Assembly (NCBI GenBank): GCA_045652135.1
Contig: JAZRTS010000155.1
Coordinates: forward strand, 1,765-65,764
Origin: Eubacteriales bacterium
GTDB taxonomy: Bacteria; Bacillota; Clostridia; Oscillospirales; CAG-272
Direction: 5' to 3'
DNA length: 64,000 nucleotides
In this document: positions 2,774 to 58,467 of the stretch, one piece after another
Position numbering within the stretch: the first letter of the stretch is position 1
How the letters are laid out: every line of letters begins with the position of its first letter
Notes under the pieces: generated by a model
What the model was told of the DNA's origin: nothing
Seen by the model: the letters and a program-made list of their open reading frames with translations, nothing else
The model's database searches: none
Position numbers and translations under genes: made by a program

Positions 2774-3145
2774 GTGAATAATGTGAAAAAAGTATATATC
2801 GCTGTCGGAGGTCTTGCTTTTGTCCTCGGCACGGTCGGTTGTTTTGTTCCTTTTTTACCGACGTTTCCGTTTTTTCTTCTGACGGGTGTGTGCTTTGCAA
2901 AAGGTTCGGATTTTCTTTATGAAAAATTCGTATCGTCAAAGCTGTACGAAAAAAATTTCAAAAGCTTTCAAGACGGCAAAGGAATGAAAAGAAGCACAAA
3001 GGTGCGTGTCATACTGTCCGTGGGCATCTGCTGTGCGGCAGGCTTTTTTCTCACAGAGAGTGCTGCGGTGAAAATAATTATTACCGCCGTCTTTGTGCTT
3101 CATATTCTGTATTTTGTTTTCGGAATAAAAAATTATGATAATTAG
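2774..3145 (+). CDS. YbaN/DUF454 family small inner-membrane protein
   Basis: 123 aa, hydrophobic, with the FVPFLPTFPFFLLTG motif typical of the YbaN family. Confidence 0.7.
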   Translation: MNNVKKVYIAVGGLAFVLGTVGCFVPFLPTFPFFLLTGVCFAKGSDFLYEKFVSSKLYEKNFKSFQDGKGMKRSTKVRVILSVGICCAAGFFLTESAAVKIIITAVFVLHILYFVFGIKNYDN

Positions 3146-5075: not shown

Positions 5076-5770
5076 TCTTTTTTCTCCTTTTCAAATTTGT
5101 ACCCCTGTCCCCATACTACCTTAATGTAACGTGGCTCGGCAGGGTTTATCTCTGTTTTTTCACGCAGGTGGCGAATGTGTACGGCAACGGTGTTGTCGCA
5201 TCCCGTCGGGTCATCCTTCCACACGCGTCTGTATATTTCCTTCGGTGAAAATACCTTGCCCTTGTTTTGCAAAAGCAACTTTAAAATATCGTATTCTATC
5301 GGCGTCAGATTTATTTTTTCTCCGTCAACGGTGACCTCTTTTTGCTCGTCATCAAGCTCAAGTCCTCCCGATGTCAGTACGTTTCGGCTTGATGTGCTTC
5401 CGCCGAGACGCATATATCGGCGGAGCTGTGAATTTACTCTTGCTATTACCTCAACGGGATTGAACGGCTTTGTTATATAATCGTCAGCACCGAGATTGAG
5501 TCCGAGTATCTTGTCGCAGTCCTCACTTTTTGCCGTCAGCAGTATTATCGGTACGTTGCTTGTTTTTCTTATTTCAGCCATTGCCGCTATTCCGTCAAGC
5601 ACGGGCATCATTATGTCAAGCAGTATTAGATGTATGTCTTCGTTTTTTATCGTTTCGACGGCATCAAGCCCGTTGTGCGCTTCAAAAATTTTATATTCCG
5701 GATTTGCAAGGTATATTTTAAGCGCATTTACAATGTCATGCTCGTCATCGCATATCAGTATGTTGTACAT
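5072..5770 (-). CDS. OmpR/PhoB-family response regulator
   Basis: Receiver domain (ILICDDE...LILLDIMMPVLDG...LTAK) plus winged-helix C-terminus (LTPIEYDILKLL...VAVHIRHLREK...WGQGYKF). Confidence 0.92.
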   Translation of the reverse strand: MYNILICDDEHDIVNALKIYLANPEYKIFEAHNGLDAVETIKNEDIHLILLDIMMPVLDGIAAMAEIRKTSNVPIILLTAKSEDCDKILGLNLGADDYITKPFNPVEVIARVNSQLRRYMRLGGSTSSRNVLTSGGLELDDEQKEVTVDGEKINLTPIEYDILKLLLQNKGKVFSPKEIYRRVWKDDPTGCDNTVAVHIRHLREKTEINPAEPRYIKVVWGQGYKFEKEKKE

Positions 5771-16692: not shown

Positions 16693-17412
16693 ATGCCAAA
16701 AATTATCTGTAAAATCGCCGATATAGTCACAGAAGTGCCTTCTTCGGGCGGTATGGAGCTGCGATGTGGGGATTATATTTATAACGGCGATGAATTGCCC
16801 GATATTATAATCGATGAGGGCAAATATCACCCTGAAAAATACGGGTGCAATTTTTCTGCTGATAATATAGCATATATGGAGTCTGCACGGCAATTTTATA
16901 CACAGCTTTTACATAGAGACGGTTTTTATTTACATGCTTCGGCTGTTGAGCTTGACGGACAAGCTTATCTTTTCTCCGGTAAAAGCGGTATCGGAAAATC
17001 AACACATACACGCCTGTGGCAGCAGTTTTTCGGTGACAGGGTTCATATCTTTAACGATGACAAGCCTGCACTCAGGTTTATCGACGGAAAATGGTATGCA
17101 TACGGCACTCCCTGGTGCGGAAAAGACGGTATCAATAAAAACGTAAAGGTGCCTCTTGCAGGAATATGTTTTTTAAAACAGTCGGTGCGTAACGAAATAC
17201 GTCGCATTTCTACCCTTGAAGCAATACCAAGGATAACGTCACAGACGATATACAAGTTCAGAGACACGGAACGGCTCGAACTTTTGCTCGGACATCTTGA
17301 CAAATTACTTACGATAGTTCCGATATATGAGCTTGAAAATAAGCCGGAAAAAGAAGCTGTGCTTTTAAGTTATAATACTATGCGGCGCGGTGCGGAGGAA
17401 AGCAATTTATGA
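16693..17412 (+). CDS. HPr-kinase-C-terminal-like P-loop kinase (HprK-related, peptide/protein-modification type)
   Basis: LHASAVELDGQAYLFSGKSGIGKSTHTRLW P-loop block characteristic of the Hpr_kinase_C fold. 239 aa, with no HPr-kinase N-terminal domain. Confidence 0.75.
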   Translation: MPKIICKIADIVTEVPSSGGMELRCGDYIYNGDELPDIIIDEGKYHPEKYGCNFSADNIAYMESARQFYTQLLHRDGFYLHASAVELDGQAYLFSGKSGIGKSTHTRLWQQFFGDRVHIFNDDKPALRFIDGKWYAYGTPWCGKDGINKNVKVPLAGICFLKQSVRNEIRRISTLEAIPRITSQTIYKFRDTERLELLLGHLDKLLTIVPIYELENKPEKEAVLLSYNTMRRGAEESNL

Positions 17413-17687
17413 AATTAAGTGAAAATTTTGTGTTGAAGCAGGTTGCAGGATCATACATAGTGCTTCCTATAGGTGGCTCAATAGTTGATTTTAACGGTAT
17501 GCTCACGCTTAACGAGTCGGGTGTTCTTCTGTGGAACACTCTCAAGCAAGGATGTGATATCGAAGGGCTTGTTGATGCGCTTACGACCGAATACAAGGTG
17601 TCGCGCGAAGTAGCGCGTGACGATATAAATGAATTTTTAACTAAACTGGCAAATGCCGGATGTATAGAAGGAGCGCTTGATGAATAA
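17409..17687 (+). CDS. PqqD-family protein (RiPP recognition element-type peptide chaperone)
   Basis: 92 aa. FVLKQVAGSYIVLP...LTLNESGVLLWNTLKQGCDIEGLVDALTTEYKVSREVARDDINEFLTKLANAG matches the PqqD pattern. ATGA overlap with the kinase gene. Confidence 0.85.
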   Translation: MKLSENFVLKQVAGSYIVLPIGGSIVDFNGMLTLNESGVLLWNTLKQGCDIEGLVDALTTEYKVSREVARDDINEFLTKLANAGCIEGALDE

Positions 17688-18108
17688 GGTACTGTTAATA
17701 TTGCTGGCCGCGACGCTTATCCTTGCCGGTGTATCTTGTGTAAGGGCGGATGATGCGAAGGGAGATTCTTCGGAATCGACAGATAAAGCTGTAACTTGTA
17801 TAGATACGGATGATACCGGCGAAAAAGAGGAAGATCGTGCAACTGAAGACGAAACCCAAAACTTTACTGCAGAGTCTGATTCCGCTGACTCTGTTGTAAC
17901 GAAAACCCCGGATGAAATGCCTAACATTACTTATGAAGATTATATTAACATGACGGCGCAGCAACAGACTGACTTTATAAAAAGCTTTTCATCCGTTGGA
18001 AAATTTACCGAATGGTATAATGCCGCTAAATCAAAGTATGATATAGACAACGATAAAATATATATTGGTGAGGAAAGTATCGATTTAGGGGATATTTTCA
18101 ACAAGTGA
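17677..18108 (+). CDS. Secreted acidic protein with a conserved 59-aa C-terminal module (candidate substrate of the cassette)
   Basis: Signal MMNKVLLILLAATLILAGVSCVRA|DD, then a D/E/T-rich linker. The C-terminal TYEDYINM...EWYNAAKSKYD...IDLGDIFNK is shared with the 24637-25224 product. The start lies 11 nt inside the PqqD gene. Confidence 0.75.
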   Translation: MMNKVLLILLAATLILAGVSCVRADDAKGDSSESTDKAVTCIDTDDTGEKEEDRATEDETQNFTAESDSADSVVTKTPDEMPNITYEDYINMTAQQQTDFIKSFSSVGKFTEWYNAAKSKYDIDNDKIYIGEESIDLGDIFNK

Positions 18109-18143
18109 AATGTATTACTTGGCAGATGAAAGGAGATATAACT

Positions 18144-18644
18144 GTGAAAAAAAATATTCCATCGCCTGCCAAGTCACGTTTTATATTTCTTGACGATTTG
18201 ATACCTGTGATTCAAGAGCAGATAGATGCAGGACGCAACGTAAAGTTTTCACCGCGTGGAGTAAGTATGCTTCCTATGCTGAGGCAGGGAATTGACAGTG
18301 TTGAGCTGTCAGGTGCGCCCGAGCGGCTGGAAAAATACGATATTGTGCTTTACCGCAGAGACAGTGGGCAGTACGTGCTTCACAGAATAGTCGGTATAAA
18401 TGGGACGTATACGTGCATAGGCGATGCCCAATTTGATAAGGAATTCGGAATCAGACGCGATCAGATAATTGCAGTTGTGACATCGTTTTACAGAGGAGGG
18501 CGACACCGTTCCGTTAAAAATGTTTTATACCGTTTGTACTGCCGCATATGGCATTACAGCAGGGGAATAAGACGTTTTATAAAGAACTTGGCCGGATGGC
18601 TTAAACGACACGTGAGCGCATTATTTTCTCATTCGGAGAAGTAA
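18144..18644 (+). CDS. S24/S26-family serine peptidase, apparently soluble, with an ER/SipW-type Ser-His motif pair
   Basis: SPRGVSMLPML (nucleophile Ser box) and YVLHRIVGINGTYTCIGD (His where bacterial SPase I and LexA have Lys). Start taken at GTG 18144 (AAAGGAG SD, 8-nt spacing). An alternative GTGA-overlap start exists at 18105. Confidence 0.7.
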   Translation: MKKNIPSPAKSRFIFLDDLIPVIQEQIDAGRNVKFSPRGVSMLPMLRQGIDSVELSGAPERLEKYDIVLYRRDSGQYVLHRIVGINGTYTCIGDAQFDKEFGIRRDQIIAVVTSFYRGGRHRSVKNVLYRLYCRIWHYSRGIRRFIKNLAGWLKRHVSALFSHSEK

Positions 18645-18647
18645 TTT

Positions 18648-19829
18648 ATGGATATTATAAAACAAGGTATTTTAATACTTATAAAAAGTGCCGTTTTGGG
18701 GAAAGCGTTAAAACTTCCCGACGGTTTTTCACTTGATGAGGCATTTACTGCCATTGCGGAGCACCGTATTATTTCTATGGCTTATACGGGCGCTGTTAAT
18801 TGCGGAATTCCTCTTTCATTGCCCATAATGCAAAAAATGCTTTTTTACAGTGCTAAGCTGATGATGATATCGGAAAAGCAGATGCAGGCTGTGGAAAAAG
18901 TTAGCAAGATCTTTTCTGAAAATGAAATAGATCATATGCCTGTCAAAGGCTGTATTATGAAAACGCGTTATCCCACACCTGCGCTTCGATATATGGGAGA
19001 TGCGGACATTTTGATACGCAAAGAACAATATGATAAAATTTCTCCCATAATGGAAAAGCTCGGTTTTTCCATTGAAGAAGAATGTGACCATGTTTTTGTG
19101 TGGAAATCGCAGGAGCTTTTGCTTGAGCTTCACGTGAAGCTGATACCGTCAAGTGAGCATCTGCTTTATGAGTATCTCGGCGACGGTTGGAGATTAGCGA
19201 AAGAAAAGAACGGCTATTGCTATGCAATGACTAAAGAAGATGAATTTATATTTTCATTTATTCATTTTGTAAAGCATTACCGTGACAGCGGCATAGGATG
19301 CCGTCACGTGGTTGACCTATGGATAATGGACAGACTTTTCGATGATGACAGCCGCGCGTATATCAAAAGAGAACTCACAAAGATGCGCCTTGACATTTTT
19401 TATGAAAATATGGTGCGCGTTATAAAAAGTTGGTTCGAAGACGGTGAAAGTGACATCATTACCGAACATATAACACAGTTTATATTTTCCTGCGGCAACT
19501 GGGGGCAAGCCAAGACGCAAGCAATGGCGCGGCAAATGCTCACGGTAGATACGGATGATCCAAAGAAAATGAGCAGAAAATTACTGTTAAAGGACATATT
19601 TCCACCGCGTGAGAGGATAAAGGGAGAATATCCGATACTCGAAAAGGCACGGTTTATGTTGCCTTTTGTGTGGATATGGCGTATAATCAAAACAGTGATA
19701 TTTAAACGTGACAGCGTTCGCCGTTCGGTCAAAAGGGCATCACTGCTGAATGAACAGGCAGTAAACGATTTCAGACAAAATCTCAAAATCGTTGGTCTTG
19801 AACCGAATACGAGGGTGGATCGAAAATAA
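18648..19829 (+). CDS. PF14907-like (NTP_transf_5) uncharacterised nucleotidyltransferase family protein
   Basis: 393 aa. IDHMPVKGCIMKTRYPTPALRYMGDADILIRKEQYDKISPIMEKLGF...LLELHVKL matches the family pattern. Starts 4 nt after the peptidase stop. Confidence 0.75.
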   Translation: MDIIKQGILILIKSAVLGKALKLPDGFSLDEAFTAIAEHRIISMAYTGAVNCGIPLSLPIMQKMLFYSAKLMMISEKQMQAVEKVSKIFSENEIDHMPVKGCIMKTRYPTPALRYMGDADILIRKEQYDKISPIMEKLGFSIEEECDHVFVWKSQELLLELHVKLIPSSEHLLYEYLGDGWRLAKEKNGYCYAMTKEDEFIFSFIHFVKHYRDSGIGCRHVVDLWIMDRLFDDDSRAYIKRELTKMRLDIFYENMVRVIKSWFEDGESDIITEHITQFIFSCGNWGQAKTQAMARQMLTVDTDDPKKMSRKLLLKDIFPPRERIKGEYPILEKARFMLPFVWIWRIIKTVIFKRDSVRRSVKRASLLNEQAVNDFRQNLKIVGLEPNTRVDRK

Positions 19830-19870
19830 AAAAAAGGCTGACTCAATTTATGAGCCAGCCATATTTTTTT
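19827..19870. terminator. Bidirectional terminator between convergent genes
   Basis: A-run, GGCTGACTCA-attta-TGAGCCAGCC (9/10 bp), T-run. Confidence 0.75.
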
Positions 19871-19872
19871 GA

Positions 19873-21165
19873 TCAAGAAGCTTTAATTGCGATATCGGTC
19901 ATAACTGTATTCGCTCTGTATGACCATACACCGAAGTAACCGTCTTTGTTGACCACTGCAGAGCCTGAATATACGATTCTGTTGTTATGATCTCGTACAA
20001 CAGCCTGATCGTATTCCTCGCTCAAGTGTATACTGCAGATCATATATTTGTTGCCGTCGGATGAGTACATATAGTATTTTATAACATCGCCGGCATCAAC
20101 AACAACGAGCTTGTGAGCTGTGGAGCAATCCTCGGGAAGTGTAACGAATGACGGTCTGTAATTCCAAGAATATCTGTCGCCGCCTCTGCCAAAGAACAAT
20201 GATGCTTGCTTTGTTCCGTTAAAGGCAAGATAAATTCCGCCGGGATCTCTTGCAGTCTTACGCTTGTCTGTGATTCTGACACCGACGAAGGAAGCATCTG
20301 TAGGCTCTGTTGAGTCTGCTATCTCACTTGTTGATGTGAGAGTCAAATGGAATTCATACTGGCTGTATTCTTTTCCGGGTTCATACTTCTGGCTGAGAGC
20401 AAGTGTGCCTTCCTTTGAGGGCTGTTCAAATATAACTGTGGAATTTTCTGCAATGACAGCCTTGTCATCTGACGGAGCTGTGTAAATGTCGAGCATTGCG
20501 GGGTTAGGCATCGTGGCAGGGTTAGGTCTGTAAGCGCGGACAAAATTGCCTATCGGCTCTGTGAAGGGCTGGGGGCCTTTTGTACCGTTGATTCTTTCAT
20601 TTGATCCGCCGTCATATCTTTTGTTGGTGCCTGCACACATAAATACGTGCGCGGGGTTACCTTTGGCATCGGGATTTACAAATACGATGTCACCCGCTTT
20701 GATGTTTCTTGTGCTTTCGATAAGCTCAAAATCGTGTTCTTCAAAATATCTGTAAAGGTTCAAGCCGTGGCGGTAATCCTGATCGATAAATCCTGCACGG
20801 AAAAGTATCCACGATACCATTCTGTCACATGCAACGATTCTTTCCTTGGGGTTTATTGCTTCTTTTGCATTGAGTGTACGCCAGTTGATAGCGGGGTTTA
20901 TTTCCGCATCTCCGTATATGAAGTTGTTGTCACGTATGAAGTCAGCAACAACCTTACCCTCTGTCATAAGTCTTTCAACAAGCTCCTCGTATGTAGGCGG
21001 AGTCCACTCATCAACAACGGGCGGTTCAGCTTCTGTAACAACATCTGTTGTTTCTGCATCTGTTGCTTGTTCGCTGCCGTTTGTTGTATCATCATTGCTT
21101 CCTCCGCAGGAGAGCATGGATAATGCGCAAATTAAACAAAGCGCACGAAGTAAAAATTTTTTCAT
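19873..21165 (-). CDS. Paralog family member 1: lipoprotein, papain-fold (Cys-His-Asp) domain + ConA/LamG-like beta-sandwich
   Basis: Signal ...CALSMLSCGG. Blocks RIVACDRMVSWILFRAGF, IKAGDIVFV, AHVFMCAGTNKRYDGGS. C-terminal domain ends DGYFGVWSYRANTVMTDIAIKAS. Confidence 0.8.
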   Translation of the reverse strand: MKKFLLRALCLICALSMLSCGGSNDDTTNGSEQATDAETTDVVTEAEPPVVDEWTPPTYEELVERLMTEGKVVADFIRDNNFIYGDAEINPAINWRTLNAKEAINPKERIVACDRMVSWILFRAGFIDQDYRHGLNLYRYFEEHDFELIESTRNIKAGDIVFVNPDAKGNPAHVFMCAGTNKRYDGGSNERINGTKGPQPFTEPIGNFVRAYRPNPATMPNPAMLDIYTAPSDDKAVIAENSTVIFEQPSKEGTLALSQKYEPGKEYSQYEFHLTLTSTSEIADSTEPTDASFVGVRITDKRKTARDPGGIYLAFNGTKQASLFFGRGGDRYSWNYRPSFVTLPEDCSTAHKLVVVDAGDVIKYYMYSSDGNKYMICSIHLSEEYDQAVVRDHNNRIVYSGSAVVNKDGYFGVWSYRANTVMTDIAIKAS

Positions 21166-21276
21166 TGTGTATCATCCTTTATCTTTTATTGGGTAATACC
21201 CTTGGAAAATTATATACTATAAGAGAAGCTATGTCAATAACAATGTTTGAATAATTTTTTACTTAAATATATGCAG

Positions 21277-21310
21277 TGAAAAAAACGGTCACAGCTTTGC
21301 GCTGTGGCCG
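21277..21310 (-). terminator. Terminator of paralog 2
   Basis: CGGTCACAGC-tttgc-GCTGTGGCCG, with a T-run on the minus strand. Confidence 0.7.
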
Positions 21311-21324
21311 TTTTGATATGAGCT

Positions 21325-22611
21325 TTAAGAAGCTTTGAGTGCAATATCGGTTATATTTGTGTTTGCTTTGTATGACCATACACCGAAATAACCCTCTTGG
21401 TTTATCGTTGTAGAGCCTGAATATACGATCTTACCGCTATGGTCACGGGCTACTGCCTGATTGTATTCCTCGCTGATGTGTATAGTGCAAATGAGGTATT
21501 CTGTGCCGTCTTCGAGATACATATAGTACTTGATAACATCACCTGTGTCAACAACGGCTATCTTGTGCGCTGTTGTAAATGTTTCGGGCAGAGTGATAAC
21601 GGAAGCAGTGTCATACCAACGGTGTCTGTTGTCCTGCTGTCCGAAGAAGAGACCTGCCTTGTTCGTGCCGTTGAGTGAAAGGAAGATTCCGCCGGGCTCT
21701 CTTGCGTTTTTGCGCTTCTCAGTCATTCTTACACCTATGTACGATGCTTCGCTTATCTCCGTTGAACCTGCGTTTTCACTTGTTGATGTAAGTGAAAGGT
21801 GAAGCTCATACTGGCTGTATTCTTTTCCGGGATCGCAAAGAGGATTGAGGGAAAGTGTGCCTTCTTTTTTATCCTGCTCATAAATCACGGTAGAATTACC
21901 GCTTACGGTTGCAACGTCGTCTGCAGGGACGTCATATATCTTCAGCATAGACGGATTTGGCATTTTTTCAGGACTCGGTCTGTAAGCGCGGACAAAATTG
22001 TTTATCGGCTCTGTGAAAGGCTGAGGACCTTTTGAACCGTTGATTCTTTCGTTTGAACCGCCGTCATATCTCTTATTAGGGCCGGCGCACATAAATACGT
22101 GCAAGGGGTTGCCGTTTGCATCGGGGTTTACGAATACTATATCTCCTGCCTTGATAGATCTTGTGTTTTCAACACGCTCAAAGCCGTGTGTATCGAAATA
22201 TTCATAAAGGTCTATGCCGTGGCGGTAATCCTGATCGATAAATCCTGCGCGGAAAAGTATCCAGGAAACGAGTCTGTCGCAAGCAACGATCCTCTCATTG
22301 GGGTCTATTGCTTCGTTTGCGTTGAGTGTGCGCCAGTTGATTGCAGGGTTTATCTGCGCATCGCCGTATATGAATTTGTTGTCGCGTACAAAATCCGCAA
22401 CGATCTTGCCTTCTGCCATGAGAATATCAACAAGCTCCTCGTATGTAGGGGGAGTCCAGTTGTCGACAACAGGTACATCTGCTTCTGTTGTCGGTGCTGT
22501 TGTTTCCGCCGATGTATCTGACGGTGCTGATGTGTCTGCGTTGTTGCCTGAGCAAGAGAACATTGACAGAGCACATATCAAACAAAGTGTACGTAACAAT
22601 AATTTTTTCAT
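21325..22611 (-). CDS. Paralog family member 2: lipoprotein, papain-fold domain + ConA/LamG-like beta-sandwich
   Basis: Collinear with member 1 throughout and highly similar to it (RIVACDRLVSWILFRAGF, LHVFMCAGPNKRYDGGS, EGYFGVWSYKANTNITDIALKAS). Confidence 0.8.
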   Translation of the reverse strand: MKKLLLRTLCLICALSMFSCSGNNADTSAPSDTSAETTAPTTEADVPVVDNWTPPTYEELVDILMAEGKIVADFVRDNKFIYGDAQINPAINWRTLNANEAIDPNERIVACDRLVSWILFRAGFIDQDYRHGIDLYEYFDTHGFERVENTRSIKAGDIVFVNPDANGNPLHVFMCAGPNKRYDGGSNERINGSKGPQPFTEPINNFVRAYRPSPEKMPNPSMLKIYDVPADDVATVSGNSTVIYEQDKKEGTLSLNPLCDPGKEYSQYELHLSLTSTSENAGSTEISEASYIGVRMTEKRKNAREPGGIFLSLNGTNKAGLFFGQQDNRHRWYDTASVITLPETFTTAHKIAVVDTGDVIKYYMYLEDGTEYLICTIHISEEYNQAVARDHSGKIVYSGSTTINQEGYFGVWSYKANTNITDIALKAS

Positions 22612-22729
22612 TATGATATATCCTTTTCTTTGGAAATTGGGAATTATCCCACTAAATTATATACTATGCCGTGCTTATTTGTCAATAGCAATATATAAAG
22701 AAAAAAATAATACTTAGCCAAGATAATTT

Positions 22730-22784
22730 GAAAAATAAAAAATGAGGCGGCTCATTTTGAGAATTGTTCCCAAGACGAGCCGCC
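22730..22784 (-). terminator. Terminator of paralog 3
   Basis: GGCGGCTC...GAGCCGCC long hairpin, with a T-run on the minus strand. The sequence resembles the hairpin at 33253-33290. Confidence 0.6.
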
Positions 22785-22901
22785 ACGTAAGTTCTTTTAA
22801 AATATTTTTCTGTGGTTTTTAACCGATTTATACATTTTGAAAAAGACGCCAGATGTGTCCCATATATTTCCTTAGATGAGACGGTTCCGTTTCAAAGTGC
22901 G

Positions 22902-24347
22902 TTAGGTTGCTTTTTTAATTGAGATGTTTGTTTGCGAAGTGTTGACATAATATTCCCAGGTGCTGAAATATCCCACCTGCTCGTATGTTCCTCTGCCTGA
23001 ATAAATAAACTTATTATTGTGGTCACGCACCGAGATGACATCGTATTCGGTGTTGATATTTATACTGCATATCAGATATTCTGCACCTGCTGATGTGTAC
23101 ATAAAATATTTTATCGTATTACCAGCATCGACAACAACTATCTTGTGAAGTGATGCTAAAGATTCGGGAAGTGCGATCTTTGCAAGAGGCTTGTACCAAA
23201 GCATACCTTCGCCGTGGTTTTCTTCCGAACAGCCTATACCTGTGTAAAGATATGCGTACGGTTCGTTACGGAATCCGAGCCAAAGACCGCCGTATTCTGT
23301 AGGTGAGTGTCCTGCCTTGGGAAGACGCGCGCCGACATACAGGCAGTTTCCTGCGTTCATCGAATCTGCTGTTGCGGAAACGTTCAAATGGAATTCATAC
23401 TGTGAATTAAAAGGATTATATCTGTAGTTCGCCGCAACATTTCCGTTGCTGTTTGCGGTGGTGTAAACTGTTGTTGTTGAAGCGGCAGGACGTGCGATAT
23501 TTGCTGTAGGTGTATTGTATATTTCCTTCAAAGAGGATTTGGGTAAGCCTGCGGGGTTGGGACGCCAAGCGTATGTAAAGCTTGAAATTCCTTCACGGAA
23601 CGGCTCTGTTGTTCCGTTAACGTAGGAATAAGCGCCTGTTCTCTGTATTCTTTCGATGGAGCCGTGGTCATATCTGAGGTTTGTACCTGCGCAAATGAAC
23701 TGATGCTCGCCGTTGAGTACGAGAACTATATCGCCTCTGCGTACATCGTTTACGTTTGTTATTTTTTCAAACTTGAATCTTTCGTAGTCAGATTCGCTGA
23801 ATCCGCCTCTGTAGAATCGCTGATCTGTATATCCTGCACGGTGGTATGCCCAGCTTACAAGGCGGTTACATGCAGATGCTCTTTCGCCGTCGATCGTTTC
23901 GTTGATGTTGAGATTCAGCCAGTTATATGCGGGATTGAGCTGTGCATCGCCGTATATAAAATTGTTATCGTCTGTGAATTTAACTATCTTTGCTGCTTCT
24001 TCGATGATTTTTTCTACAAGCTGGCTGTATGTGGGAGCGTTTTCGTCGGTGGGTACTTCGCAATGCTCACCGTAATAATTACGCAGTGCAATTATGTCAG
24101 ATCTTGTGATAGAGCCGTCACCGTTTATATCCACTTTTGCATCATAGGGGAAAAGTGCGGGCTTACGTATGTATTTCATAACACGTACGGCATCTTTTCC
24201 GTTAACGATACCGTCACGGTTAACGTCACAGTCAGATACCATAACAGCGGCAGACGTTCCGAAAAGATTCGGGAGTGATACCGCACCGACTATCATAAGC
24301 GCTGACAGACATATGCCGATGACCTTGAAAAGTTTGCTGTTTTTCAT
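22902..24347 (-). CDS. Paralog family member 3: signal peptide + type-I dockerin + papain-fold domain + beta-sandwich
   Basis: Dockerin Ca-binding repeats DVNRDGIVNGKD and DINGDGSITRSD (about 24063-24236). Blocks ASACNRLVSWAYHRAGY, HQFICAGTNLRYDHGS, VGYFSTWEYYVNTSQTNISIK. Confidence 0.82.
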   Translation of the reverse strand: MKNSKLFKVIGICLSALMIVGAVSLPNLFGTSAAVMVSDCDVNRDGIVNGKDAVRVMKYIRKPALFPYDAKVDINGDGSITRSDIIALRNYYGEHCEVPTDENAPTYSQLVEKIIEEAAKIVKFTDDNNFIYGDAQLNPAYNWLNLNINETIDGERASACNRLVSWAYHRAGYTDQRFYRGGFSESDYERFKFEKITNVNDVRRGDIVLVLNGEHQFICAGTNLRYDHGSIERIQRTGAYSYVNGTTEPFREGISSFTYAWRPNPAGLPKSSLKEIYNTPTANIARPAASTTTVYTTANSNGNVAANYRYNPFNSQYEFHLNVSATADSMNAGNCLYVGARLPKAGHSPTEYGGLWLGFRNEPYAYLYTGIGCSEENHGEGMLWYKPLAKIALPESLASLHKIVVVDAGNTIKYFMYTSAGAEYLICSININTEYDVISVRDHNNKFIYSGRGTYEQVGYFSTWEYYVNTSQTNISIKKAT

Positions 24348-24559
24348 TTTGTGATTCCTCGCTTTTGTACTGATTTAGATCGCTTGCTTATGAAAATGCA
24401 AGGAAATTTGTGATATATTTCCTTGCAAATATATGCAATAACAACTCATTACAGTATACACATCAAAATCTGTTTTGTCAACACTATTTAATATAATAAA
24501 TGGTATTTAATGATTTTTTGTACTTTTTGCATAATAATTGCGCTTTATATATGTTAATA

Positions 24560-24597
24560 AAGACTATAAAGGTCGGCAATGTAATATGCCGACCTTT
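24560..24597 (-). terminator. Putative terminator of the 25260-26549 / 24637-25224 pair
   Basis: AAAGGTCGGCA-atgtaata-TGCCGACCTTT. The stem is nearly identical to the one at 26675-26700. Confidence 0.5.
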
Positions 24598-24636
24598 AAT
24601 TAAGCTTTTGAAGCAGAGTATCGGAACGGATACTCC

Positions 24637-25224
24637 TTATTTACCGAAAATGTCACCGAGGTCGATGGTGTCATCGCCTATGTCTACATTTCCGTTATTC
24701 TTGTCATATTCTGCCTTTGCCGCATTGTACCATTCTATAAATTTACTGAGTGAAGGGAAATTTTTGATGAATTCCGTTTGTTCATTGGGAGACATATTGA
24801 TGTAGTCCTTGTAAGTGTACTCGGAAGGATCAAATTTTTCAGGTTCGGTTTCGGGCGCGGTTGTATCTTCGGGTGCTGTTTCGGGCGGTTCTACTTCAAT
24901 TACGGGATCATCGAGTATTTCGCACGTCTGACCGTAATATGAATACACTTGAGCAATGTCATTGTTATCAATAATTCCGTCACCGTTGACATCGGCTTTT
25001 TCGGGAAAGTAATAATCGTCGGTGAGAATATACTTCATTATGCGTATGACATCTTTGCCGTTTATGATACCGTCACGCGTCACATCACATAATGATATCG
25101 GATCTTCATTTGGTGGCTCAATTTCATCCCACGTTGCGAAAACGCTCGGAAGTAATGCCGCGCCGATCGTGATTAAAGCGGAGAAGCATATAATGACAGA
25201 CTTGAAAAAAACATATTTTTTCAT
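24637..25224 (-). CDS. Signal peptide + type-I dockerin + Pro/Glu/Thr linker + the conserved 59-aa C-terminal module (no catalytic domain)
   Basis: Dockerin DVTRDGIINGKD / DVNGDGIIDNND (about 24931-25092). C-terminal TYKDYINMSPNEQTEFIKNFPSLSKFIEWYNAAKAEYDKNNGNVDIGDDTIDLGDIFGK aligns without gaps to the end of the 17677-18108 product. Confidence 0.8.
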   Translation of the reverse strand: MKKYVFFKSVIICFSALITIGAALLPSVFATWDEIEPPNEDPISLCDVTRDGIINGKDVIRIMKYILTDDYYFPEKADVNGDGIIDNNDIAQVYSYYGQTCEILDDPVIEVEPPETAPEDTTAPETEPEKFDPSEYTYKDYINMSPNEQTEFIKNFPSLSKFIEWYNAAKAEYDKNNGNVDIGDDTIDLGDIFGK

Positions 25225-25259
25225 ATTTCACATTTCCTCGATTTAAAAAACATAACAAA

Positions 25260-26549
25260 TTAATTTGCTTTTATTACGATGTCAGAGGTTATTGTTTTTG
25301 CTCCGTGCGACCACACACCGAAATAACCGAAATCATTCAAAACGGCTGTACCTGCATATATGATATTGTTGTCGCTGTCGCGCACTACTATCTGGTCATA
25401 CTCTGCGCTCACACGTATCGTGCATATCAGTATCTCCTCGCCCGAGGTTGTATACATATAGTATTTGATAACGTCGCCCGTGTCTACAACGACTACTTTA
25501 TGAGCAGATTTGAAATTTTCGGGCAATTTTACAGATGCAACAGGTTCGTTCCATATTTTCGCCTTCGCGCCGCATCCAACGTATAAGCAAGCCTCGTTTT
25601 CTCCTCGCAGAGCGATAAAAATACCGCCGGGCTCTGTTGCATTTTTTCGTCTTTCGGTAAGCCTTGCGCCTACAAACGATGCTTTCCACGGGCTGTTGTC
25701 ATTGACTTCCGAATACGATGTGAGATTAAAATGAAATTCGTATTGTCCGTATTCCTTTCCGGGCTCGTACGATTCGGAAATTGTCAGCGTTCCTTCTTTT
25801 TCGCCGCTTTCGAAAACGGTTTTTGCATCTGCCGATATCTTTGCGGAGTCTTTGTCGGCAGGCTCATATATTTCAAGCATTGACGGATCCGGCATATAAT
25901 CGGGCGAAGGTCTGTAAGCACGGACAAAATTGTTTACAGGCTCGTTGAACGGCTGAGGGCCTTTCGTGCCGTTTATTCTTGCGTCACTTCCACCGTCATA
26001 TCTCAAGTTCTTTCCCGCACATATAAATACGTGTCCGGGAACACCGTTTGCATCGGGATTAACGAAAACGATGTCTCCTGCCTGTAACTCTTTTACCGAG
26101 TCTACCCTTTGAAATCCGTGCTCGTTGAAATAATCTTCAAGATCGATACCGAAATAGTAATCCTGATCGATAAATCCCGAACGGAACATTATCCAGTTTA
26201 CAAGTCTGTCGCAGGCGACTATTCTTTCTTCGGGCTTTATAGCATCCTTCGGGTCAAGCGTGCGCCAGTTAACAGCAGGATTTATTATTGCGTGTCCGTA
26301 TATGAAATCGTTGTCACGTATAAAGTCCGCAACTATCTTGCCCTCACGCATCATTATTTCAACAAGCTCCTCATAAGTCGGACGCTTCCATTCGGTAACG
26401 TCATTATCCTCGGGAGCAGTAGTGTCTTGTGTGGTTTCAGCAGGCGCTGTATCGCTTTCAGCGTGAGATGTTTCCGTTTGATTGCCTGTGCACGAAAAAA
26501 GAGAAGCGGCGCATAGCAAACAAACACATTTTAATATGATTTTTTTCAT
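25260..26549 (-). CDS. Paralog family member 4: lipoprotein, papain-fold domain + beta-sandwich
   Basis: Start moved to the ATG at 26549 (MKKIILKCVCLLCAASLFSCTG; AAAGGA SD). Blocks RIVACDRLVNWIMFRSGF, GHVFICAGKNLRYDGGS, FGYFGVWSHGAKTITSDIVIKAN. Confidence 0.8.
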   Translation of the reverse strand: MKKIILKCVCLLCAASLFSCTGNQTETSHAESDTAPAETTQDTTAPEDNDVTEWKRPTYEELVEIMMREGKIVADFIRDNDFIYGHAIINPAVNWRTLDPKDAIKPEERIVACDRLVNWIMFRSGFIDQDYYFGIDLEDYFNEHGFQRVDSVKELQAGDIVFVNPDANGVPGHVFICAGKNLRYDGGSDARINGTKGPQPFNEPVNNFVRAYRPSPDYMPDPSMLEIYEPADKDSAKISADAKTVFESGEKEGTLTISESYEPGKEYGQYEFHFNLTSYSEVNDNSPWKASFVGARLTERRKNATEPGGIFIALRGENEACLYVGCGAKAKIWNEPVASVKLPENFKSAHKVVVVDTGDVIKYYMYTTSGEEILICTIRVSAEYDQIVVRDSDNNIIYAGTAVLNDFGYFGVWSHGAKTITSDIVIKAN

Positions 26550-26667
26550 AAATACAAGTCCTTTGTAATATTTAAACTTATTTTTTAATATAAGTATACA
26601 CTCAAATTCCCGTTTTGTCAATATGTATGATACCGTGTGAGGCTGGTGCTGTATTTGCTTCGGCTTC

Positions 26668-26700
26668 AGAAAATAAAGGTCGGCGATTTCGCCGACCTTT
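26668..26700 (-). terminator. Terminator of paralog 5
   Basis: AAAGGTCGGCG-attt-CGCCGACCTTT, with a T-rich tract on the minus strand. Confidence 0.65.
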
Positions 26701-26708
26701 GATGAAGA

Positions 26709-28208
26709 TTATTTTTTAGCACACTGTATGGATATATTGGACTGGGTTGAATTTGAAAGATGAGTCCATACACCGAAATAACCCGTGTGTCCGATCTCTG
26801 TAAGACCTGCATAAATGAATTTGCCGGAGTTGTCACGAATACAAATTGTATCATAATCAGGGGATACCTTGATACTGCATATTAGGTAAGTATCTCCCGG
26901 GTTATGCGTCACCATATAGTATTTGATGACGTCACCCGTATCTACGACCATGATCTTATGCTCTTGCGTTAGCGGCTCCGGTACACGTGTTGAAGCAAGC
27001 GGCTCGTACCAAGCGTTTCCGAAACCGTCATTTCCTGATCCTCTCTGACCCTTGGAACAGCCTGTGCCTGTGTAGAAGTATACGTAACCGTCATCACGCA
27101 GAGCTATCCAGATACCGCCTTTGTTTGTGGGGTTATGGTTGGGATAAGGCAAACGAACGCCGACGTATGTCGAGCTTGACGGACTGCGGTCGCTTGTTGA
27201 AGGCGAAGATGAGATGTTCAAATGCAATTCGTAGTTTGCGTTGTAGGGATTGTAAGCAAAGTTGAACTGTCTTGAGCCTGAACCGTTAGCTGCTGTGTAA
27301 ACAGTATCGGTGTTCGGTGCGGGACGTGCTATGTTAGCATCGGGAGTTTTATAAATATTTGCTACCGATGTTGCGGGAAGTCCTTCGGGATTGGGACGCC
27401 ATGCGTATGAGAAGTTGCGTATCGATTCTCTGAACGGCTCGGTTGTATTTTCAACGTAAGCGTATGCGCCTATACGCTGAATACGCTCAACGCTTCCGTG
27501 GTCATATCTGAGGTTGGGGCCTGCGCAGATGAACTGGTGCAGAGTGTTGTTTACAAGCACTATATCGCCTGCTCTTACATCGTTTACGTTTGTTATCTTT
27601 GTGAACTTGTATCTTGCGTAATCTGCATCGGTAAATCCGCCGTAGTAGAATCTCTGATCAGAATAGCCCGCACGGTGGAATACCCAGCTTACAAGACGGT
27701 CGCAGGCGGAACGTGTGCCTGTTACAAAGGACTTATCAAGACCTTCGTCATAATTAAGATTGAGCCAGTTGTATGCAGGGTTTATTACCGCATCGCCGTA
27801 GTTGAAGCCGTAATTGTTAGTGAACTCCGTTACCTTTTTTGCTTCCTCGAGTATCTTTGCAACGAGCTGATCGTATGTAGGCTTCGGCTTTTCCACTTCA
27901 ATTACACGGTCGGGAAGTATTTCGCATGTCTGACCGTAGAAGGAACGTATTGCCACAACGTCCGCAGAGTTGATAGTTCCGTCTCCGTTTACATCTGCCT
28001 TGTCGGGGAAATAGTAATCGTCTGTGTGGATGTATTTCATTACACGTATCATATCTTTTCCGTTTATAATACCGTCACGGTTTACGTCACAGTCGGTAAC
28101 AACAACGGCTGCGGATATGCCGAATAAATTCGGGAGCGATATAGCACCCAGAATAAACACAACGGAAAGACAGATTCCGAGTGTCCTATAAAGTCTGCTG
28201 TTCTTCAT
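26709..28208 (-). CDS. Paralog family member 5: signal peptide + type-I dockerin + papain-fold domain + beta-sandwich
   Basis: Start moved to the ATG at 28208 (MKNSRLYRTLG; AAAGGAG SD). Dockerin DVNRDGIINGKD / DVNGDGTINSAD (about 27933-28094). Blocks RSACDRLVSWVFHRAGY, HQFICAGPNLRYDHGS, TGYFGVWTHLSNSTQSNISIQ. Confidence 0.82.
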   Translation of the reverse strand: MKNSRLYRTLGICLSVVFILGAISLPNLFGISAAVVVTDCDVNRDGIINGKDMIRVMKYIHTDDYYFPDKADVNGDGTINSADVVAIRSFYGQTCEILPDRVIEVEKPKPTYDQLVAKILEEAKKVTEFTNNYGFNYGDAVINPAYNWLNLNYDEGLDKSFVTGTRSACDRLVSWVFHRAGYSDQRFYYGGFTDADYARYKFTKITNVNDVRAGDIVLVNNTLHQFICAGPNLRYDHGSVERIQRIGAYAYVENTTEPFRESIRNFSYAWRPNPEGLPATSVANIYKTPDANIARPAPNTDTVYTAANGSGSRQFNFAYNPYNANYELHLNISSSPSTSDRSPSSSTYVGVRLPYPNHNPTNKGGIWIALRDDGYVYFYTGTGCSKGQRGSGNDGFGNAWYEPLASTRVPEPLTQEHKIMVVDTGDVIKYYMVTHNPGDTYLICSIKVSPDYDTICIRDNSGKFIYAGLTEIGHTGYFGVWTHLSNSTQSNISIQCAKK

Positions 28209-28485
28209 AAGCAGTATCTCCTTTCGCACGGGCGGTATTTTCCGCCGTATTTTGACGCTTAATTTTACACTATAAAAGAAATTTTGTCAACAATGCAAAA
28301 TAATTAGAAATATAACAAACGGATTAATATATATATAAAGTATGAACTTTGGAGTGCTTTACGGTGGTTTTGTTGTGATAAATGCACAAAATTTTAAACG
28401 GTGATTTTGTGTATTTGCTGAATTTCATATTTTTTTTATTGCGGTAAAACGCTGTGGTTGATACTGCCTTGTTCACATAAAACTA

Positions 28486-29322: not shown

Positions 29323-30918
29323 ATGAAAAAAGCACTTTCATTGATATTGACAGTTGTTATGGCACTGTCGATGGCGCTTACAGCCTTCGGCGCAGTTGAA
29401 CAGGAGTTCAACACAGAAGGTCTGGAAATCAATCTTGATGTAAAGTACAACGCAACTGCCCCCAAAATGGACGGTAAGATCAATGCAGGCGAATATTACG
29501 AAATGACATTCGCTGATTACAAGCAGTATTTTAACCTTATAAAGGGTTCACAGCACACAGAAACTCTTGAAGATGTTGCAAACTATCTCAAGAACGATAT
29601 GAAGGTTTATATGACTTGGAACGGCAACGATTTTTATATCGCACTTCAGGGTAAGGCTCCCAAGTCTGAATACAACTGCGAATTTTCAGGCAACGAAGTT
29701 TACCTTTTCCGTGCTTGGTCATTCCAGGTTGCTATCACAAGCATCGAAGCTGAAAACCAGGACAGAGCAGAAGTAGGTATCGGCTATGATCCCGCTTCGG
29801 GCGGAAATATGATCTCCTACACAATGTGGGGTACAAGAAAGAACATCAAGCTCAAGGCAGGCGAAAACTATGCGGCTGATTGGGATAAGGATGAAGAAGT
29901 TGTTACATACGAAATGAAGCTTGATCTCGCTTCCGTTCTCGGCGGCAAGGCACAGAATAACAGCCTTTTCCGTCTTGGCTTCTGTCTTAACAGAGGCGAC
30001 GGCGATATCGCAACAGATGACAGACAGAGACAGATAGAGCTTGGCGGCGGTATCGGTTCTTCAAAGCAGGTAGAAAACCTTGCAGTTATAGCTCTTACAG
30101 GTAAGGGCGCAGGCGACGGTGACGTTGATGTAGACATTCCCGTTGAAACAGCTCCCCAGGAAGAGGAGCAGGCAGGCTTTGACGCTGCTGACCGTTTTGA
30201 CGTAGCAGGCGCTGCTGAACTTTTCGACATCACAAACGGCTCACTTGAAGCTAAGGATATGGATGAAAACGGCGAAAAGTTTGTAAGACTTACAGTTACA
30301 GGCGAAAACCCCATTATCGGTTCAAAACAGCTCACACAGGGCCTCAACATGGATGCTCAGGGCGTGTACCTTGCTATTAAGTACCGTACGTCCAGCCAGA
30401 AGAGCAACCGTTTCGCAATCAACTTCCTTAACTCTGTTTCCACAACACTTGACAGAGATCTTGACTGCGACCTCGGCTTCGGTATAATGACTGACGGCGA
30501 ATGGCACACAATGGTATTTGAAATGTCACTCTACAGCGAGTGGTCACAGTTCATCTCCGAATTCTATCTCTGCCCCTTCTTCATTACTGATGAAGACGTT
30601 ACAGGCGAAACGATAGACATTCAGTGGATCAAGTATTACTCTGAACCCCCTGTATTCGAGGATGAAGAATATGAAAACCTCAGCTTTGGCGATGACGAAG
30701 CAACAGAGGGCGACACAGAAGCGCCCGCTGAAGATACAGCGGCAGCTGATACATCAGCTACAGAAACAAAGGGTGATACAACAACAAAGGCAGGCACAAC
30801 AACAGGTACAGATGACGAAGGCGGTTTCCCCGTTGGCGCTATTATCGGTATCGTTGCAGCAGTTGTTGTAGTTGCAGCAGCAGTTGTAATCATCATAATG
30901 AAGAAAAAGAAGGCGTAA
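29323..30918 (+). CDS. Cell-surface protein: signal peptide, CBM9/DOMON-like domain(s), acidic Thr-rich linker, C-terminal TM helix + poly-Lys tail
   Basis: MDGKINAGEY opening typical of CBM9-like domains. C-terminus GGFPVGAIIGIVAAVVVVAAAVVIIIMKKKKA. No LPXTG. Confidence 0.7.
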   Translation: MKKALSLILTVVMALSMALTAFGAVEQEFNTEGLEINLDVKYNATAPKMDGKINAGEYYEMTFADYKQYFNLIKGSQHTETLEDVANYLKNDMKVYMTWNGNDFYIALQGKAPKSEYNCEFSGNEVYLFRAWSFQVAITSIEAENQDRAEVGIGYDPASGGNMISYTMWGTRKNIKLKAGENYAADWDKDEEVVTYEMKLDLASVLGGKAQNNSLFRLGFCLNRGDGDIATDDRQRQIELGGGIGSSKQVENLAVIALTGKGAGDGDVDVDIPVETAPQEEEQAGFDAADRFDVAGAAELFDITNGSLEAKDMDENGEKFVRLTVTGENPIIGSKQLTQGLNMDAQGVYLAIKYRTSSQKSNRFAINFLNSVSTTLDRDLDCDLGFGIMTDGEWHTMVFEMSLYSEWSQFISEFYLCPFFITDEDVTGETIDIQWIKYYSEPPVFEDEEYENLSFGDDEATEGDTEAPAEDTAAADTSATETKGDTTTKAGTTTGTDDEGGFPVGAIIGIVAAVVVVAAAVVIIIMKKKKA

Positions 30919-30930
30919 AGCTTAAAATTA

Positions 30931-30962
30931 ATTGCCTCCCGAAAAATCGGGAGGCAATTTTT
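30931..30962 (+). terminator. Rho-independent terminator
   Basis: ATTGCCTCCCG-aaaaat-CGGGAGGCAAT + TTTTT. Confidence 0.8.
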
Positions 30963-30975
30963 GAAAGGTATTATT

Positions 30976-31764
30976 ATGAAAAAAGCATTTATAAAAACAC
31001 CTATTGCACCGCTTTTCAGAAAGCCCGATTCAAATATTTCACTTGAAGATGAGGTGCTTTTTGGTATGGAGGTTGAAGCAGAAGAAGCCGAAAACGGTTT
31101 TTATTTTGTCACAACCCATTACGGATATACAGGATACGTGAGCAAAAAAGACCTTTTATTCTGTCCGCGCCGTGTTAAAAAATTCTCCGAAATGAAAGAT
31201 AAATATAAAGTAGTAAAAAAATCATTTTGCGATATTTTGAGTGAGCCGAAAATGCAAGGCATACGCCTGATAACACTTCCGAGGGGAAGCCGTGTGGCAC
31301 TCACCGAGATACTTGAAAATAATTGGGTGCGTGTGTATCTTTGCGACGGTGTCGAAGGATACACAAGAATCGAGCATCTTGACGATTACAGAACTACATA
31401 TGACATAAACGATGAAAATTTGCGTGATGCTCTTGTTAAAACTGCCGAGAGCTATCTTGGCACACAATACCGCTGGGGCGGTAAAACACCGTCAGGTATT
31501 GACTGCTCGGGGCTTTGCTCAATGGCATATATGCAGTGCGGTATTATTATCTACCGTGATGCAAAGCTTATGGAGGGATATCCCGTCAAGGAAATACCGT
31601 ATGAACAGCTCAAACGAGGTGACCTTGTTTATTCCCCCGGTCACATAATGATGTATATCGGTGACGGTAAGATAATTCACTCCTCATCGTCAATGTGCGG
31701 TGTTTCGTATTCGTCTCTTCCCGACAAAGATAAAATAACCGCTTGCGGAAGTATTTTCGCCTGA
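30976..31764 (+). CDS. SH3b + NlpC/P60 (C40) peptidase without signal peptide (YkfC-like murein-peptide endopeptidase type)
   Basis: GTQYRWGGKTPSGIDCSGLCSMAY (catalytic Cys) and GDLVYSPGHIMMYIGDGKIIHSS (His-His). Start moved to the ATG at 30976 (GAAAGG SD). Confidence 0.85.
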   Translation: MKKAFIKTPIAPLFRKPDSNISLEDEVLFGMEVEAEEAENGFYFVTTHYGYTGYVSKKDLLFCPRRVKKFSEMKDKYKVVKKSFCDILSEPKMQGIRLITLPRGSRVALTEILENNWVRVYLCDGVEGYTRIEHLDDYRTTYDINDENLRDALVKTAESYLGTQYRWGGKTPSGIDCSGLCSMAYMQCGIIIYRDAKLMEGYPVKEIPYEQLKRGDLVYSPGHIMMYIGDGKIIHSSSSMCGVSYSSLPDKDKITACGSIFA

Positions 31765-54498: not shown

Positions 54499-54535
54499 AA
54501 ATATGAGGAAGTTTAAAGATATTTACTGAAAACGG

Positions 54536-56023: not shown

Positions 56024-56026
56024 ATT

Positions 56027-57442: not shown

Positions 57443-57447
57443 ACGTT

Positions 57448-58446: not shown

Positions 58447-58467
58447 TCTTATTAAGGGGGTATTGTT

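Follow-up and report, generated by a model that had tools for sequence, protein, structure and literature searches.

A conserved array of surface-anchored proteins predicted to pair a divergent NlpC/P60-type domain with a ConA-like β-sandwich in a Eubacteriales bacterium

What might a gut bacterium do with five tandem paralogous genes, each encoding an exported two-domain protein that belongs to no named family? The question is raised by a locus in Eubacteriales bacterium (CAG-272; assembly GCA_045652135.1, contig JAZRTS010000155.1), of which we analyzed a stretch of 64,000 nucleotides (hereafter, the window). The five proteins of this array are each predicted to join a divergent NlpC/P60-type domain to a concanavalin A (ConA)-like β-sandwich, and a sixth relative is encoded elsewhere in the window. 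We favor, at slightly better than even odds (roughly 55%), the reading that they are lectin-guided cysteine hydrolases at the cell surface, which would cleave peptide or amide bonds in peptidoglycan-type glycopeptides. The array, the small gene within it, and the sixth gene are as follows.

19873-21165, minus strand: member 1 (m1), a 430-residue lipoprotein with two domains; lipobox Cys20, a disordered linker to about residue 55, NlpC/P60-like domain at residues 57-220 (nucleotides 20506-20997), ConA-like domain at residues 221-430 (nucleotides 19876-20505)
20827-20829, 20647-20649, and 20611-20613, minus strand: m1 codons for C113, H173, and D185, respectively
21325-22611, minus strand: member 2 (m2), a 428-residue lipoprotein with the same two domains as m1; triad C111/H171/D183
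22902-24347, minus strand: member 3 (m3), 481 residues; signal peptide, N-terminal type I dockerin (residues 41-91), NlpC/P60-like domain (residues 105-269), ConA-like domain (residues 270-481); triad C160/H215/D227
24637-25224, minus strand: small dockerin protein, 195 residues, within the array and without a hydrolase domain
25260-26549, minus strand: member 4 (m4), a 429-residue lipoprotein with two domains; triad C113/H173/D185
26709-28208, minus strand: member 5 (m5), 499 residues; signal peptide, dockerin at residues 41-86, then the two domains; triad C169/H224/D236
1855-2667, minus strand: sixth relative (m6), a 270-residue lipoprotein; triad C145/H221/D238

In a six-frame list of open reading frames (ORFs), all six paralogs lie exactly where a preliminary description of this DNA had placed them, and its account of five collinear minus-strand copies is borne out: comparisons of copy against copy by tblastn gave E-values of 1e-27 to 1e-119 among the six proteins, which excludes chance similarity. 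Over their full length, the five array paralogs are 40-71% identical, and the two subgroups proposed earlier are apparent, with m1 and m2 sharing 71% and m3 and m5 sharing 59% identity. Member 4 is 58-60% identical to m1 and m2, and identity amounts to ∼40-45% between the m1/m2/m4 and m3/m5 groups, and likewise to the sixth protein. The six-protein alignment contains all of the motifs quoted in the preliminary description and has 38 invariant columns, including C113, H173, and D185 (m1 numbering here and below).

Our structural models predict that the N-terminal domain is a divergent NlpC/P60-type papain-like fold with a Cys-His-Asp triad. Residues 52-222 of m1, modeled alone with AlphaFold2, reached a predicted local distance difference test (pLDDT) score of 96.3; the model of the full protein, with a 51-sequence alignment as input, gave a pLDDT of 88 and a predicted template modeling (pTM) score of 0.81, and its disorder was limited to the signal peptide and the linker. 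In Foldseek searches of the PDB, the best matches of the N-domain model were almost exclusively NlpC/P60 and CHAP peptidoglycan hydrolases (probability 1.0), among them SAV0400 (4fdy), Acd33800 (9ubf; template modeling (TM) score of 0.69 by target), Acd24020, LytE, MepS, SagA, CHAPK, and Tae3, and a viral structure library yielded CHAP and NlpC/P60 endolysins and tail lysins. In the m1 model, C113 opens the helix formed by residues 113-124, H173 resides in the strand 171-179, and D185 falls just past the strand 182-184, which is predicted to be the canonical, non-permuted NlpC/P60 layout. The papain-like fold and the invariant triad that had been proposed from the motifs are thus supported by Foldseek and by the alignment, respectively.

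The triad is invariant in 6/6 window proteins, and C113, H173, and D185, together with Tyr84, are invariant across 51 aligned sequences. Moreover, when 188 domain matches of metagenomic relatives were re-aligned, the Cys, the His, and the Asp were each kept in 176 of the 180 ungapped domains. The Cys-His and His-Asp spacings, which had been put at about 60 and 12 residues, are 60/12 in m1, m2, and m4, 55/12 in m3 and m5, and 76/17 in the sixth protein. Tyr84 is a plausible counterpart of the oxyanion-hole tyrosine described for the NlpC/P60 superfamily (PMC3573020). Four distant domains (P0165, P0170, P0180, and P0182) have their Cys/His replaced by G/G, N/N, G/G, and A/C, respectively, while keeping the Asp, and are probable pseudo-enzymes.

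The family has no named Pfam model, as the preliminary description had surmised: the conserved regions of the six window proteins matched no Pfam or NCBIfam family above threshold. Weak matches to NLPC_P60 (PF00877; gathering threshold of 23 bits) recur in 19 of 51 family members, with a best E-value of 0.0056, and one of the 51 matches CHAP (PF05257) at an E-value of 0.0072, below threshold. In both hidden Markov model (HMM) and hhalign alignments, the catalytic His of canonical NlpC/P60 proteins coincides with the GDIVF...H motif; aligned with the window's own canonical NlpC/P60 protein (30961-31764), our N-domain profile matched over the GD.V...H segment alone, at a probability of 4%, which is consistent with this placement but is not evidence by itself. 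Sequence-profile searches of the PDB with 6- and 94-sequence alignments found nothing significant, and the sole sensible weak match was a Trichomonas NlpC/P60 protein (6biq, E-value of 0.22), aligned at the His motif. A PHROGs scan returned signal-peptide-level noise only.

The C-terminal ∼210 residues are predicted to form a two-sheet, ConA-like jelly-roll β-sandwich. When the whole m1 model was compared with the PDB by Foldseek, the matches were dominated by its C-terminal half: there were 106 matches at E≤1e-3, and the best 50 of these 106 were almost all ConA-like. They are led by CBM66 (4b1m), ERGIC-53, VIP36, legume lectins, and the DUF1080-like 3mep (E-values from 4e-6, probability 1.0, TM score of ∼0.56 by target), and also include the β-sandwich of a GH32 levanase. 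The ConA-like/DUF1080-type jelly roll that had been suspected from the terminal strands is therefore supported by CBM66, L-type lectins, and 3mep, yet no Pfam ConA-like family reached E≤1 in any paralog, the sequence profiles for CBM66, DUF1080, and Laminin_G_3 being unmatched. A local hmmsearch found the C domain in 34 of 189 fetched proteins. In every protein in which both domains could be mapped, namely the full-length family members and P0053, it comes directly after the N domain, so that the pair behaves as one evolutionary unit; the junction between the two in the full m1 model has a pLDDT of >90, is conserved, and has no flexible linker. Word-indexed searches with the C domain alone, as a profile and as a single sequence, gave 1 and 0 matches and missed known positives, and are uninformative on its wider distribution.

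These proteins had been described simply as secreted. The term hides two different anchors: m1, m2, m4, and m6 carry a lipobox, whereas in m3 and m5 a Dockerin_1 domain comes after the signal peptide. In the former group, the signal peptide ends in a lipobox with Cys20 (residues 17-20 being M-L-S-C, M-F-S-C, L-F-S-C, and L-T-A-C, respectively), as matched by eye to a PROSITE-type pattern. At least 90% of 51 homologs retain Cys20, lipoprotein N-terminal family models were matched at an E-value of 1e-5, and a low-complexity tether of ∼35 residues lies past the lipobox in all four proteins. In the latter group, Dockerin_1 exceeds its 22.9-bit cut-off with 38 bits in m3 (E-value of 1.9e-9) and 35.8 bits in m5 (E-value of 9e-9), and it does so with 35.2 bits in the small dockerin protein; two calcium-binding repeats, DVNRDG..NGKD and DVNGDG.I, are visible.

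The signal peptide and dockerin of the small dockerin protein share 47-56% identity with their m3 and m5 counterparts. Its C-terminal domain of ∼57 residues (YxDYINM..Q.EFIK.F....F.EWYNAAK..YD...IDLGDIF.K; no Pfam match) also occurs, at 61% identity, on a lipoprotein encoded on the plus strand at 17677-18108, so that the exchange of lipid and dockerin anchors extends to a second, unrelated module. In a related genome (L001), only the C-terminal half of the small dockerin protein remains (5214-5504).

Each hydrolase-like gene is preceded by its own sigma-70 consensus promoter (TTGACA-17-TATAAT), and most have a terminator-like hairpin followed by a T-run; the sixth gene likewise has its own consensus promoter upstream. 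The signals in the array, all on the minus strand, are as follows.

21209-21237: promoter of m1, 12/12 consensus positions
22656-22685: promoter of m2, 12/12
24453-24481: promoter of m3, 11/12
26593-26621: promoter of m4, 11/12
28262-28290: promoter of m5, 11/12
19836-19860: hairpin and T-run, 3' of m1
21290-21306: hairpin and T-run, 3' of m2
24567-24598: hairpin and T-run, 3' of the small dockerin gene
26675-26700: hairpin and T-run, 3' of m5

The scan for hairpins with T-runs detected none 3' of m3; otherwise, this pattern agrees with the earlier statement that most genes have their own terminator. The small dockerin gene begins 35 nucleotides past m4, and the promoter scan found no sigma-70 consensus ahead of it, so that its co-transcription with m4, as proposed previously, is reasonable and probable. 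Longer ORFs with TTG or GTG starts, at 26621 and 28229, overrun or abut the promoters, which shows that the ATG starts of the preliminary description are correct.

Close relatives were found only in metagenome-assembled genomes (MAGs) of uncultured Clostridia/Eubacteriales from the guts of ruminants, for instance the rectum of sheep and the caecum of buffalo; a word-indexed protein search returned 45 relatives, none of them named. An exhaustive HMMER search of 1.84 billion representatives gave 610 matches at E≤1e-3, of which 304 reached E≤1e-10 and 116 reached E≤1e-30. These counts are approximate for the catalytic domain because its profile also kept CBM9-like columns and some matches, among the 304 as well as the 610, are to the CBM9-like part only. 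The array is syntenic in related MAGs, where L001 and L004 have five copies each, L003 has six, and genomes further removed have two or three, and it always adjoins rpe and a gene for a 531-residue secreted protein.

Every array gene in the window has a positional ortholog in the related genomes, and the ratio of nonsynonymous to synonymous substitution rates (dN/dS) is 0.03-0.19 in both domains for orthologs in L001, L003, and L004. This indicates that the paralogs are ancient and that each has been maintained separately; they are not diversifying over their whole length, as had been suggested, and this purifying selection, along with the strong promoter before each gene, indicates that the genes are functional. 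The two domains nevertheless differ in rate: the C-domain dN is ∼1.5-2 times the N-domain dN in most comparisons with the more distant orthologs (L003 and L004), and paralog identities in the N and C domains are 84 versus 63%, 72 versus 49%, and so forth. The array also changes much faster than its neighbor rpe, which is 99% identical, versus 73-94% for the array proteins. Between m1 and m2 (19873-22611), dS is 0.79 in the catalytic domain and 1.66 in the lectin domain; since it is half as large in the former, past gene conversion confined to the N domain is suggested.

The sixth protein (1855-2667), which had been regarded as a truncated paralog, is instead a member of a distinct, conserved short subfamily. 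It consists of a subfamily-specific N-terminal mini-domain (YYVR...GYVVYDSEGNLAY) and the NlpC/P60-like domain, without the ConA-like domain, and homologs of ∼300 residues share this architecture (P0041 and P0043-P0045). A truncated pseudogene was rejected as an explanation, given the intact ORF, the separate consensus promoter, and the conserved homologs. Just upstream, on the same strand, lies an OmpR-type two-component system (histidine kinase and response regulator, 3147-5770), and a small opposite-strand ORF for a membrane protein (2774-3145) sits between the two.

Pfam scans of 94 distant representatives revealed the company that the catalytic domain keeps. Dockerin_1 is present in 14/94 and ricin lectins in 7/94, followed by PG_binding_1 (6/94), Phage_lysozyme2, the phage tail lysozyme (5/94), CHAP (5/94), Amidase_2 (3/94), SH3_3 (3/94), Glucosaminidase (2/94), and type IV secretion system (T4SS) pilin-like domains (2/94). 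The scans also detected SPOR, choline-binding repeats, Lysozyme_like, and an endolysin-like domain; GH106, melibiase, and GDSL lipase domains occur in single representatives. One chain of 1988 residues (P0117) combines GH3, the catalytic domain, NLPC_P60, M15_4, Amidase_3, and the phage tail lysozyme; another relative (P0042) has a T4SS-pilin-like N-terminus, and its gene adjoins one for an M23 peptidase. Partners of the lectin type (ConA-like, CBM9-like, and ricin repeats) recur across the relatives, and giant members join the catalytic domain to up to 20 ricin repeats. The neighborhood of a CBM9-fused relative (P0028) contained housekeeping genes only and gave no functional hint.

Within the window, the array is chromosomal, has rpe on one side and a biosynthetic cassette on the other, and is in the vicinity of the dcw cluster; our scans of the window ORFs found neither phage or conjugation genes near it nor glycoside hydrolase or polysaccharide-utilization genes flanking it. 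The cassette (16693-19829, plus strand) encodes an HPr-kinase-like P-loop protein, PqqD (PF05402, E-value of 1.6e-17), a lipoprotein, a 179-residue protein that by eye has the look of an S24/S26-type peptidase, and NTP_transf_5 (PF14907, E-value of 1.3e-35). It resembles the accessory sets of ribosomally synthesized and post-translationally modified peptides (RiPPs) or lasso peptides, although no precursor or cyclase was identified in it. A functional coupling of the array to this modification cassette, which the preliminary description had entertained, was rejected, as the cassette is in fragments in L001, where the array is intact. The 531-residue secreted protein (29323-30918, plus strand) has a C-terminal transmembrane anchor, an acidic Thr-rich stalk, and no Pfam match, and it is conserved at 75-88%, adjoining rpe, in L001, L003, L004, and L009. 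The canonical protein at 30961-31764 (plus strand), 3 kb from the array, combines SH3_16 with NlpC/P60, is of the YkfC/dipeptidyl-peptidase VI type, and lacks a signal peptide; speculatively, it could process murein peptides released extracellularly. The dcw cluster (52414-59814, plus strand), ∼25 kb from the array, encodes a penicillin-binding protein with PASTA domains, a Mur ligase, and FtsW/RodA, consistent with a Gram-positive chromosome context.

Taken as surface hydrolases, the array proteins would each be exported and then held by one of their two anchors: m1, m2, m4, and the sixth protein by the N-terminal lipid and its disordered tether of ∼35 residues, and m3 and m5 by the N-terminal type I dockerin, which would plug into a cohesin-bearing scaffold. 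In the active site, the Cys at the start of its helix would be activated by the His on the central sheet, with the Asp, 12 residues further on and beside the neighboring strand, orienting the His, and Tyr84 would likely serve as the oxyanion-hole residue. The ConA-like sandwich would most likely recognize a glycan and present the glycan-attached peptide to the active site. Because both the fold neighbors and the family-wide domain associations point to peptidoglycan, this is the most probable substrate class, with a cleavage site predicted inside the stem peptide or at its base. Among themselves, the paralogs may differ in their glycan specificity and in the site of the envelope at which they act, being either membrane-proximal or displayed on a scaffold.

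Several observations weigh against this reading. The NlpC/P60 superfamily also includes acyltransferases and amidases with non-peptidoglycan substrates; anchoring by lipid or dockerin is unusual for Gram-positive autolysins; and classical modules for binding peptidoglycan do not include the ConA-like domain. The Foldseek E-values of the N domain are modest (5.8e-4 at best), NLPC_P60 reaches only 14.2-14.7 bits (E-values of 0.03-0.04) in m1, m4, and m6, below the 23-bit cut-off, and no cohesin domain was found among the scanned ORFs of the 64-kb window. Moreover, the one dockerin-borne NlpC/P60-like protein studied structurally, from Ruminococcus flavefaciens, showed no protease activity (PMC3573020). 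Since the anchoring is unusual, the binding domain is of a non-classical type, and there is a link to dockerins, a substrate other than peptidoglycan remains a serious, if clearly less probable, contender. The proteins would then be accessory enzymes similar to those of cellulosomes or amylosomes, with the ConA-like domain as a carbohydrate-binding module for a dietary polymer, and would act on groups that decorate plant cell-wall polysaccharides through ester or amide links, or on plant, host, or protozoal glycoproteins. The dockerins on two members and on the 14 distant representatives fit this possibility, as do the life of the host in the ruminant gut, the best C-domain match being a fructan-binding module (CBM66) joined by the GH32 levanase sandwich, the CBM9-like and ricin lectins of other subfamilies, and the single GH106, melibiase, and GDSL lipase cases; the R. 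flavefaciens protein is itself dockerin-borne and of unknown role (PMC3573020). However, the catalytic and binding modules that most often accompany the domain across the family are specific for peptidoglycan, the close structural neighbors are almost exclusively peptidoglycan hydrolases, and the array is not flanked by genes for glycan degradation, all of which weigh against this possibility.

Antibacterial lysins, either contact-dependent or secreted, and displayed to kill competitors or to harvest their walls, would account for the relatedness of the fold to Tae3, Tae4, and phage lysins, for an expanded family that evolves faster than the housekeeping gene beside it, and for a cytoplasmic YkfC-like murein-peptide peptidase located 3 kb away. 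We nonetheless consider this unlikely, and with it the inter-bacterial system raised in the preliminary description, since an effector-immunity weapon is difficult to reconcile with monocistronic genes that lack immunity-like neighbors. Where a Tae-Tai-type locus would be expected to interpose partner genes, the sole interposed ORF in the array is that of the small dockerin protein; the Pfam and NCBIfam scans found no delivery domains of the type VI (T6SS), type VII (T7SS), or LXG type in the array; each gene has its own housekeeping-type promoter and, save m3, a detected terminator; and purifying selection, with no gene-level signature of an arms race, accompanies an array that is syntenic and stable across related genomes. 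It is less probable still that the proteins are non-catalytic surface adhesins or lectins whose papain-like domain has degenerated into a scaffold. While the loss of both Cys and His in four distant domains, as well as the inactivity of the R. flavefaciens homolog in protease assays (PMC3573020), would suit such a role, the triad, the putative oxyanion Tyr, and the nearby motifs are invariant in the six window proteins and in ∼98% of relatives, and conservation is higher in the N domain than in the C domain, both among the paralogs and in most pairs of more distant orthologs. This conservation of the triad argues against a purely non-catalytic function and for the hydrolase reading.

A bolder extension, which we regard as improbable, is that the fixed NlpC/P60 and ConA-like pair constitutes an unrecognized class of lectin-guided cysteine hydrolases, carried on the membrane as well as on cohesin scaffolds, that attacks non-self glycoconjugates, for example, by lysing or harvesting the walls of neighboring microbes. 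If so, cellulosome-type scaffolds would be a platform for bacteriolysis or necromass feeding besides fiber digestion, and each of the five conserved paralogs would have a target specificity of its own. More immediately, the catalytic domain defines a family without a curated model, the naming of which would cover several hundred "hypothetical proteins" of gut and rumen metagenomes; one enzymatic module on two alternative anchors, lipid and dockerin, within a single conserved array provides a clean natural example of such an exchange; and the list of non-carbohydrate-active enzymes associated with cellulosomes, which has been small so far, is extended.

Comparison with known systems places the array family closest to the NlpC/P60 (MEROPS C40, PF00877) and CHAP cell-wall hydrolases with appended targeting domains, such as Bacillus subtilis LytE, Clostridioides difficile Acd33800 and Acd24020, Escherichia coli MepS, Enterococcus faecium SagA, and Staphylococcus aureus SAV0400. 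The predicted papain-like α+β fold is the same, as are (i) the triad order, with a Cys at a helix N-terminus, a His, and a polar residue; (ii) the GD(I/L)V(F)...H(V) motif ahead of the His strand; and (iii) export, often with a lipoprotein anchor (MepS/NlpC), in a modular protein with a targeting domain. The array family differs by its extra N-terminal helix, by the invariant F.YGDA.INPA before the Cys helix and the ACDR.V.W motif, by an Asp as the third triad residue, by a sequence score below the Pfam threshold, and by a targeting domain that is a ConA-like sandwich, rather than LysM, SH3, or cell-wall-binding repeats, with dockerin anchoring in some members. With CBM66/DUF1080-type modules and L-type lectins, the C domain shares the sandwich fold but has no Pfam-level sequence match, and, unlike in those comparators, it always follows the array catalytic domain in the proteins examined. 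The multidomain lysins of phages and conjugative elements (CHAP/NlpC-P60 with amidase and lysozyme, and T4SS wall hydrolases) have architectures that recur in the distant relatives P0117 and P0042, whereas the array in the window is part of the chromosome and no genes of phages or of conjugation lie close to it.

In ecological terms, the nearest precedent is RflaF_05439 of R. flavefaciens FD-1 (PDB 4EYZ), a dockerin-bearing, cellulosome-associated protein whose NlpC/P60-like modules were recognized by structure alone, whose function is unknown, and for which a cell-surface location was inferred (PMC3573020); its structure paper was the only relevant one that we found in the literature on NlpC with dockerin, concanavalin, or domain architecture. 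As in the array family, the NlpC/P60 fold was visible only by structure. RflaF_05439, however, has two tandem catalytic modules (Cys109/His215/Gln230), a C-terminal X-dockerin, and no lectin domain (PMC3573020), whereas the array members have a single catalytic module, an N-terminal dockerin or lipobox, and a fused ConA-like domain; the Cys-His spacing is 106 versus 55-60, and the third residue is Gln versus Asp. Nor was 4EYZ among the top 50 PDB Foldseek matches of our N-domain model. The array family is thus a different lineage from RflaF_05439 and, with this dockerin-borne precedent in R. flavefaciens, it is not the undescribed system or new type of system that the locus had seemed to offer, but a new, unmodeled subfamily and domain combination within a well-known superfamily.

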